A DNA stretch of 64,000 nt from Podarcis cretensis (taxonomy: Eukaryota), in assembly GCA_951804945.1 (NCBI GenBank), contig OX638154.1, forward strand, positions 18,910,001-18,974,000. The letters run 5' to 3'. A model generated the notes under the pieces. The model was not told the origin of the DNA and made no database searches. It saw only the letters and a list, made by a program, of their open reading frames with translations. Shown piece after piece: positions 9,141-10,888 of this stretch. Numbering within the stretch: position 1 is the stretch's first letter; every line of letters begins with the position of its first letter. The translations under genes and the position numbers were made by a program.

Positions 9141-9481
9141 ACCATTTTCACTTCTTTTATTGTGTGACTCACAGTAGTGTACAAAACCATGCTGCAGCAA
9201 TAAACTGCCTGAGAAAGTTTACTTAAAAGACCCACTCTGTGGCTTTTGATTGTAATGTAATCCTTCCCCTAAGGGAGAAGTGGGGAACCTGCAGCCTCTT
9301 AATGTAACTCTTATCATTTTCCACCACTGGCCTTCTTGGCTAGGACTAATGAGAGCTGGAGTCCAGCAACATTTTATGGCCACAGGCTCCCCATCCCTGC
9401 CCTGAGACGCATCTGCACTGGAGATGCTCCCTGTTTCAACATGTTGTTTAGGCTGCAATCTGAACCTCTGAAAAACGCGTC

Positions 9482-10240
9482 TGTCAGGGACTCAGCGGGA
9501 GCGCAGGGAGGAGAGGAGATGGAAAGCGAGGGGGAGCAATCCGAGGGCAGCGTAGGAGAATATGACAGCAGCCCGATAGATTCCATGAGCCTCTCCAGCG
9601 AATCGGAAGATTCACAGAAGGGGGCGCCGATGGGCAGGGCAAGGGGCGACCCAAGGGGGACACCCCAGAAGCAAGGGGCCAGCGGGGACTCCCAGAGCAG
9701 CAGTTGCAAATCAGGACCAGCTTCCCCACCAGAGCGTAGTGGGGGGGAGGATTCCCAGGTGTCAGAGCCCACATATGCACCACCAGCGAGAGAAGATGAG
9801 TCAGGGTGGACCACGCCTCCATCGGAGAGCGAGTTAACGGTTAAGAGGAAAGTTGCAGGCTGGGTGCGCGCGCCAAGTTCAAAGGTACAGGCGAGCGGCA
9901 CAGAAGGTAGCCCGGATAGGGAACCAGGTCCTAAAGCCCGCCGGAAGGAGGGGCAAGAATCGTCAGGGTCAGCGTCAGAGGAGTCCAGGAAGGATGAGAC
10001 CCTAGCGGGCAGGAGGGCCCAGAGGAGAAAGGAATTTAGGAAGAGGTGGAGCAAAGCGAGAGTCTTAAACTGGTGTGGAGGGGGAGGAGACTCAGACAGG
10101 ACTTCGCCGGTCTAAGGTCAGGACGTAGAGCTGCACGCTGCGGCTTTAAAATGGAGACTGAATCTCAATAAAGACTTTTGTACATAACTACAGCCTAGCG
10201 TTGGTCCTCTGTGAGCTGGGACCTGGAGGCAGCTCTGACA
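9482..10240 (+). mobile_element. Solo LTR (759 bp; Gypsy-like or ERV-like) containing an intact ORF
   Basis: TGTCAG...CTGACA termini, perfect 5-bp TSD GCGTC (9477-9481, 10241-10245), TATA-like TTTAAAA 10145-10151, AATAAA 10167-10172. Confidence 0.9.
9519..10115 (+). CDS. LTR U3-encoded putative 198-aa protein, Ser/Glu/Gly-rich with an Arg/Lys-rich C-terminus; expression unproven
   Basis: ATG in good Kozak context (GAGATGG). The frame is open from the first LTR base to TAA, 30 nt before the TATA-like box. Confidence 0.5.
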   Translation: MESEGEQSEGSVGEYDSSPIDSMSLSSESEDSQKGAPMGRARGDPRGTPQKQGASGDSQSSSCKSGPASPPERSGGEDSQVSEPTYAPPAREDESGWTTPPSESELTVKRKVAGWVRAPSSKVQASGTEGSPDREPGPKARRKEGQESSGSASEESRKDETLAGRRAQRRKEFRKRWSKARVLNWCGGGGDSDRTSPV

Positions 10241-10888
10241 GCGTCCTTTTGAGGATCCCCAGTGACATGGCAGGGCGAAATGTCTTTGCCCTGTGCATCC
10301 CTTTGATGATTGCCAGGGTGCCTTCCCGGAAGGTGTTTTGGCGATCTCTGCCAGGAACATGGCAGGGCGAAGCATCTTCGCCCTGGTGCATCCTCTGCAA
10401 TAGACGCAGCAGGGCCAAACGTCTTTGCCCTGCTACATCCCTTTCACAAAGGTAAGGTGGCTGGCGGTGTGTGGAGAGATGGCAGGCCGAGTTAACCTGG
10501 CTGGGTTGGAGGGGTGTCGCATATGTGACATCATGCACGCACAATGCCCCTGCCGCCACCTGTGCAATTCGGCACCTCTGGCAGATGCTCTATCACTGAG
10601 ATATACCATTTCTCTTAATGGCACCACTCACTTAGAAGAGGAAGCTCCAAGGTTTGTGAAATAATAAAAATATTTTTTTTTTGGGGGGGGGACCCTAGGT
10701 GAGTCGGACATCCCAAAGCAGCTTAATGGGGACTGTGCATGCTTAAGGGACACAAAATATTAATATTAATTGGAGAAAATTAAGAACATTCAGGGTTGCA
10801 TCCAACTAAGTCATACTCACTCATGACTAACTTAACGTCATTTGTTTCAATGGGTCTGTTCTGAGCATGGCTTGGTCCGATGCGACTG

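Follow-up and report, generated by a model that had tools for sequence, protein, structure and literature searches.

The long open frame in the LTR of a Podarcis cretensis Ty3/gypsy element is the end of pol, and a sister family occupies telomeric repeats

Coding sequence within LTRs is familiar from MMTV sag and HIV nef, which are separate U3 genes with their own mRNA and start, and the integrase of Ty1 reportedly bears a nuclear localisation signal at its C-terminus, to judge from reference titles. Among LTR retrotransposons belonging to the Tf1/sushi group, the self-primer is 11 nt long. Self-priming from a 5' segment of the mRNA is a mark of this group in the available portions of PMC4600332 and PMC6317226. 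In group A of the plant CRM elements, a putative targeting domain is coded in the 3' LTR (PMC3059260, accessible text), and the chromodomain aromatic cage is described in the available part of PMC3605345. Ty5 integrase has a phosphorylated targeting domain that binds Sir4 (excerpt of PMC4700185), and the telomere-repeat elements named in the available portion of PMC10088271 are the non-LTR families SART/TRAS and MoTeR and, as the vertebrate case, Tx1-1_ACar of the anole.

Here, we describe a solo LTR located in a 64,000-nucleotide stretch of the Podarcis cretensis genome (the window; all coordinates refer to its + strand unless a contig is named), together with its parent element and two sister LTR classes. 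The long frame in this LTR is the last part of pol and is unlikely to be a gene of its own. We assign a probability of roughly 0.7 to the broader reading that this pol end is maintained by purifying selection and likely forms a disordered integrase tail used in nuclear entry and the choice of landing site.

With the Tf1/sushi chromoviruses (the V-clade, comprising sushi-ichi and Amn-ichi/ni/san in the accessible part of PMC6317226), the lizard element shares the order protease, reverse transcriptase, RNase H and integrase (PR-RT-RH-IN), a Tf2-type SH3 domain, a Gag with DUF4939/Ty3 capsid and CCHC domains, 5-bp target-site duplications (TSDs), a self-priming primer-binding site (PBS), a chromodomain-like fold and the lack of env; unlike them, it carries approximately 350 additional residues behind the chromodomain, 210 of these LTR-coded, and has lost the aromatic-cage positions. 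As in CRM group A, the pol ORF runs into the 3' LTR. However, CRM elements have a tRNA-Met primer, a CR motif replacing the chromodomain and a preference for centromeres (partial texts of PMC3059260 and PMC3605345), whereas the lizard element is self-primed by pairing of the PBS with its own R, and places a chromodomain-like fold before the polypurine tract (PPT) and a predicted disordered tail behind it; the layout is CRM-like, but the element is not a CRM member. Coding sequence in the 3' LTR is also shared with MMTV sag and HIV nef, but in contrast to these and to Rex-like genes, the lizard frame is fused to pol and lacks a conserved start of its own. One sister family, with 784-bp LTRs, resembles Ty5 in being an LTR element enriched near chromosome ends; Ty5, however, is copia-type and enters silent chromatin near telomeres (available portion of PMC4700185), whereas the 784 family sits inside the TTAGGG array itself. 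As do SART/TRAS, MoTeR and Tx1-1_ACar, the 784 family inserts in telomeric repeats and builds mosaic chromosome ends, but those elements are LINE-type, whereas the 784 family is of the LTR type and integrase-based, occurs in both orientations and also has many dispersed copies.

The solo LTR, its parent element and the start of its RNA

As described in the earlier note, a 759-bp element with TGTCAG...CTGACA ends occupies positions 9482..10240 and is flanked by the TSD GCGTC on the left (9477..9481) and on the right (10241..10245). It is a solo LTR of a young Ty3/gypsy family that has no second copy in the window. The frame is open from 9483 to the TAA at 10113-10115 (9483..10115, 210 codons and the stop), or for 198 aa from the ATG at 9519..9521, and the amino acid composition and basic end were likewise found as described; the basic patch, PKARRK ... 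RRAQRRKEFRKRWSKAR (9930..10061), a candidate nuclear localisation or chromatin-binding segment, is present in all six aligned tails. In the right flank (10259-10440), imperfect direct repeats of 35 bp contain internal palindromes, CAGGGCGAAG...CTTCGCCCTG.

At least 40 copies of the 759-family LTR are 99-100% identical, and 2188 LTR starts were counted genome-wide. Six LTR pairs among the matches listed were taken as full-length copies; the solo LTR is 99.5-99.6% identical to both LTRs of each. These elements are 6.56 kb long and have TSDs of 5 bp, mismatched in one case; the two LTRs of an element show 0-1 differences. Gag contains DUF4939, Ty3 capsid and CCHC domains, and pol, at 1563 codons, overlaps it at the heptamer GGGAAAC, which we take, by analogy with PEG10, to be a frameshift motif, such that Gag-Pol would be made via a -1 frameshift at this site. 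Protease, RT, RNase H, integrase and a Tf2-type SH3 domain follow in this order and there is no env; with the LTRs and TSDs, this gag-pol organization places the element in Ty3/gypsy, and among solved structures in the PDB, Ty3 Gag-Pol comes nearest (E 9e-136), followed by PEG10 (E 0.001). Two of the six copies have a frameshifted Gag, and one has an internal pol stop.

In all six copies, the pol frame passes through the PPT into the 3' LTR (GGFEGGMD/VRDSAG across the junction) and ends at the stop that corresponds to TAA 10113-10115, so the full-length elements that the earlier note proposed to seek extend the frame upstream as pol. The 784 family has a 1556-aa frame in most of its best 101 copies, the Podarcis muralis UniRef proteins P0010, P0012 and P0013 show the same read-through from pol into the LTR, and the pattern of the PPT-LTR junction occurs 1140 times in the genome. 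The proteins P0008 and P0011 are 784-like. From 30 junction loci and 30 matches of a divergent protein, three LTR classes were derived: one of 759 bp with 210 codons, one of 784 bp with 218 and one of 823/826 bp with 232, all in register with the PPT and with homologous stops. No pol-into-LTR frame in vertebrate gypsy elements was found in the literature covered; Repbase, Butler et al. 2001 and subscription journals may describe such families.

AGACAGGACTT at 10094..10104, the putative self-primer, is complementary to the PBS that follows the 5' LTR; transcription and R would begin here, and from family to family the primer varies in concert with the PBS. Across 62 distinct junctions, the pairing extends over 11/11 positions in 19, 10/11 in 41 and 9/11 in two, with seven further motif matches that have no locatable primer site kept outside this set; the perfect pairings span six covarying primer/PBS variants, and the minimum free energy fold pairs the self-primer and PBS ends (z -2.1). 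Two elements that each bear an identical short LTR at both ends, 151 and 159 bp (L157, G000:C1:60727000-60732950; L158, C8:12174450-12180400), have a U3 deletion that stops at the first base behind the 11-nt self-primer, at a CAG microhomology, and are likely products of misplaced minus-strand transfers. Because the self-primer covaries with the PBS and these short LTRs break exactly behind it, the RNA likely starts at 10094. A further element (L161, G000:C4:95147500-95153900) has an in-frame 600-bp U3 deletion in both LTRs that spares ten tail codons of the LTR part, and in L162 and L163 there is a deletion at the 3' LTR. The short LTRs of L157, L158 and L161 do not imply that the tail is dispensable, since such a deletion can arise during reverse transcription of an intact RNA.

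This start revises three assignments of the earlier note, which had the ATG as the start of the protein, TTTAAAA as a TATA-like box and the polyadenylation signal as probably in U3. TTTAAAA (10145..10151) is present as reported, but it lies within R and is not conserved, being absent from the 784 family and replaced by TTTGAAA in 823/826. The likely TATA-like box is instead CTTAAA (10061..10071, overlapping the VLN codons), about 30 nt 5' of the putative start, which the junction survey recovered in 56 of the 62 distinct junctions, with CTTGAA in five and a deleted LTR in one. AATAAA (10167..10172), also present as reported, lies 73 nt downstream of the putative start, so both the pol stop and this signal fall within R. 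The leader also contains a six-codon upstream ORF, METESQ (10151..10171). As the likely start lies downstream of ATG 9519, the solo LTR probably cannot express the frame; it would be a recombination relic whose own promoter is downstream of the ATG, likely without a protein product. GTAAGT stands directly 3' of the 5' LTR (L034:1052-1057). In HIV-1, the major splice donor occludes the poly(A) signal of the 5' LTR, and by analogy GTAAGT may do the same here.

Selection on the LTR-coded frame and divergence of the tail

The earlier note had conceived of the frame as an LTR-encoded protein of the Rev/Rex/Tat type; that it is coding and selected is borne out, but it is the end of pol, and a separate accessory gene is not supported. 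A frame of at least 210 open codons is rare in the + frames of the shuffled LTR, arising in 0.23% of mononucleotide (n=10000), 0.45% of dinucleotide (n=10000) and 0.3% of trinucleotide shuffles (n=3000), and across all six frames in 5.2%, 1.5% and 0.7%, respectively. Nei-Gojobori dN/dS among seven natural LTRs was 0.23-0.43 in 21/21 pairs, with every interval below 1, in a set that was picked for open frames, with pairs that share ancestry, transition bias ignored and the 784 pairs near saturation. The other two + frames of these LTRs contain 3-11 stops each. DNA alignments made blind to the frame showed an excess of third-position changes in 5/5 comparisons (p 2e-5 to 0.012). The expectation that indels come in multiples of three was borne out in part: relative to 823/826, the indels are 3 and 63 nt in the coding part and 1-2 nt beyond the stop, but the 759 versus 784 alignment has ambiguous gaps of 2, 1, -1 and 19 nt (net 24).

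Distinct LTRs are open to the homologous stop in 24/28 cases for the 759 class, 70/74 for 784 and 18/33 for 823/826, the last count leaving out L011 and 30 tandem-array loci on contig C14 (18/62 with them); loss of the frame in this older class is as expected from decay after insertion. The codon at ATG 9519 is Met in 68/71 reads of the 759 family, Thr in 177/179 LTR reads of the 784 family and mixed in 823/826, reads that are not independent because the loci overlap. The last 18 codons are conserved for cis reasons too, as the TATA-like box and the self-primer overlap them. A sister LTR of 826 bp whose frame is broken has been amplified within a tandem array with a period of approximately 2.5 kb near the contig start (G000:C14:229000-374000, L037-L066; 41/45 matches in the C14 array), and also occurs near the ends of C12, C13 and C15.

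Between the 759 and 784 families, the LTR part has a dN/dS of 0.31 [0.17-0.47] and the tail just 5' of the LTR one of 0.29 [0.15-0.49], values that point to one selective regime across the PPT-LTR junction; in RT, integrase and SH3 it is 0.03-0.06, where dS could be estimated. Pol identity per 100 aa is 41-56% in the tail vs 67-93% upstream, and dN is 0.37-0.42 in the tail vs 0.07-0.15 in the core, SH3 and chromodomain. Within pol, divergence between the two families is greatest in the tail; they also differ in Gag and in the chromodomain.

An AlphaFold2 model of pol residues 1040-1563, built from a 10-row alignment, folds the SH3 domain and a chromodomain-like unit with pLDDT 80-90, and nearly everything past model residue 170, including the LTR part, scores below or near 50. 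Foldseek matches to the folded domain are weak, with Ty3 integrase first, followed by chromodomains at E 0.002-0.03. This chromodomain-like domain has no Pfam Chromo match at E 0.1 and aligns with PF00385-bearing relatives; it lacks aromatics at three positions where the outgroups P0016/17/19 carry them. These related Pols have a length of about 1200 aa, and their match to the C-terminal query is limited to 30-32% of it. Pfam contains no family that matches the LTR peptide or the 456-aa C-terminus, and a profile search of 1.84 billion representatives returned four close relatives and nothing else. The tail is acidic and then basic, with a net charge of +8 in the last full 40-aa window in both families, and the basic end is kept in all six aligned tails, as the earlier note anticipated. 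A role of the tail in nuclear entry or tethering is likely. The tail would stay attached to integrase after proteolysis, its basic end could act as a nuclear localisation signal or chromatin anchor, and its divergence may shift the target, so that the 784 version would tether to telomeric chromatin.

A sister family inside telomeric repeats

The flanks of 784 loci are frequently pure telomeric repeat. LTR starts adjoin (TTAGGG)n, in either orientation, in 245/777 cases for the 784 family (3' LTRs account for about half of these 777) vs 1/2188 for the 759 family; 823/826 gave 3/2983 matches to a loose pattern, a chance-like number with no true TTAGGG among them. With telomeric 24-mers at approximately 0.025% of the assembly, 0.2 telomeric starts would be expected for 784 and about 0.5 for 759; assemblies under-represent telomeres, and the sister families serve as the control. 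On C1 alone, a hand count from the matches listed placed 9/22 784 insertions in telomeric repeat, and interstitial telomeric sites carry insertions as well. At the two chromosome ends examined the element dominates, accounting for 69.5 kb of the initial 90 kb of C6 and 88.4 kb of the final 100 kb of C13 (77-88%), in both orientations, with repeat tracts of 18-3131 bp and constant repeat polarity.

Twenty telomeric and 20 dispersed 784 copies, chosen by position among the matches listed, included no identical pair, with mean distances of 22.3, 24.2 and 23.3 SNPs (permutation P 0.43), and for 20/20 telomeric copies the nearest dispersed copy was as close as the nearest telomeric one or closer. 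The telomeric copies split 11 vs 8 by orientation, with one other. Telomeric and dispersed haplotypes are intermixed and no pair is identical, which fits many independent insertions. Contigs of run X4, possibly the assembly's own sample, contain repeat-LTR junctions at both LTR ends; the loose ends listed for runs X5 and X8, which have other organism labels and low depth, included no telomeric junction. We are confident that the colonisation of telomeres by the 784 family is real. The literature covered contained no vertebrate LTR element in TTAGGG arrays, and the available parts of PMC12581995 and PMC9498494 contained nothing relevant; Repbase and closed journals may describe such families, so novelty is provisional.

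Several further observations concern insertion sites. A solo 784 LTR (L213, G000:C1:8152250-8153300) is likely polymorphic, as the empty site is present in runs X4 and X8. Across one 784 element (L171, G000:C1:34910-41570), the polarity of the telomeric repeat flips, through either recombination between elements or misassembly. The 759 family piles up in subtelomeric nests (G000:C1:1-250000 and C1:141060000-141590000), with 17 LTR starts within the initial 250 kb of C1 vs about 1/Mb further in; these copies are of mixed age (94-99% identical to the window LTR where full length), and their flanks are mostly different, with some duplicated.

Alternative readings and significance

As the selected unit, a stand-alone LTR gene beginning at ATG 9519 is very improbable, and so is an antisense protein (frame 10111-9374). 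This ATG stands in a strong context, but the 784 family lacks it and the putative RNA start is downstream of it, and with the frame being the end of pol, a stand-alone accessory gene is unlikely. The antisense frame, which is open in 5/7 LTRs and has wobble positions in common with the sense one, is interrupted by stops in the 784 LTR and in L108, and its first Met lies far inside. Alternatively, a spliced subgenomic RNA, from the GTAAGT donor behind the 5' LTR to an acceptor at the chromodomain end, might yield a tail protein of about 360 aa from the Met of 'RPMP' besides the Pol fusion. All families have GTAAG immediately behind the 5' LTR, and both families have, at homologous positions, a pyrimidine-rich YAG with an in-frame ATG downstream, one of just 3/191 and 2/208 such sites. 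However, the acceptor falls on conserved F-P-H-R codons, a second such site falls on F-P-R codons of gag, a young 784 lineage without the AG still spread (3 reads), primer pairing requires AAG of the donor, and a CA-GT end is ordinary for integrase. The contigs of four runs guessed to be RNA, which cannot show absence, contain no donor-acceptor joint, and overall we consider this RNA unlikely.

Integration of the 784 family into telomeres might be caused by its LTR-coded tail, through tethering to shelterin-bound (TTAGGG)n; this remains a tentative proposal. A sister family with a much-changed tail lies in telomere repeats far above chance, so the tail likely helps choose the landing site. A tolerated coding spacer with a nuclear localisation signal, the telomere preference stemming from Gag, the chromodomain, the integrase core or cDNA, is nevertheless a serious contender, at somewhat below even odds: dN/dS of 0.3 and predicted disorder suit a linker of low specificity, Gag and the chromodomain also differ between the families, and the tail lacks a shelterin-type motif (the only match to [YFH]xLxP, the TRF-docking motif, falls in the chromodomain of all families and none in the 784 tail). 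Against the spacer stand the far greater similarity of core, SH3 and chromodomain than of the tail, and the C-terminal targeting domains of Ty5 and CRM integrases (accessible portions of PMC4700185 and PMC3059260). Local sequence preference alone is insufficient, as the TSDs of dispersed 784 copies vary and one 759 copy uses GTTAG outside telomeres. It is improbable that the telomeric copies are a few insertions multiplied by telomere recombination, retained as the youngest, or assembly artefacts. The 784 family is somewhat younger (a mean of 23 vs 36 SNPs per element pair for 759), 1/20 telomeric copies has flanks of opposite polarity, many 784 matches map to small unplaced contigs, and the loose ends listed for X5 and X8 include no telomeric junction; yet the 40 copies are all distinct and intermixed, both orientations occur with constant repeat polarity along the ends and varied tract lengths, interstitial sites free of erosion are also targeted, and X4, though possibly the assembly's own sample, supports junctions at both LTR ends.

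On the preferred reading, that of a selected pol end likely acting as an integrase tail, a puzzling LTR ORF becomes a vertebrate parallel of the plant CRM layout, and, if true, the self-priming gypsy elements of lacertids code a fast-evolving integrase targeting tail in the U3 of their LTRs. The 759 and 784 families constitute a natural experiment: their enzymes are much alike, their tails differ greatly, and they relate to telomeres in opposite ways (1/2188 vs 245/777). The telomere-repeat elements named in the available text of PMC10088271 are not LTR elements, and Ty5 targets silent chromatin near telomeres (excerpt of PMC4700185); a vertebrate LTR retrotransposon would, if this is true, have turned chromosome ends into mosaics of retrotransposon and telomere while telomeric repeats persist. 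That an LTR element makes up 77-88% of two chromosome ends in a vertebrate matters for telomere biology, for estimates of telomere length in lizards and for how integrases find their targets.
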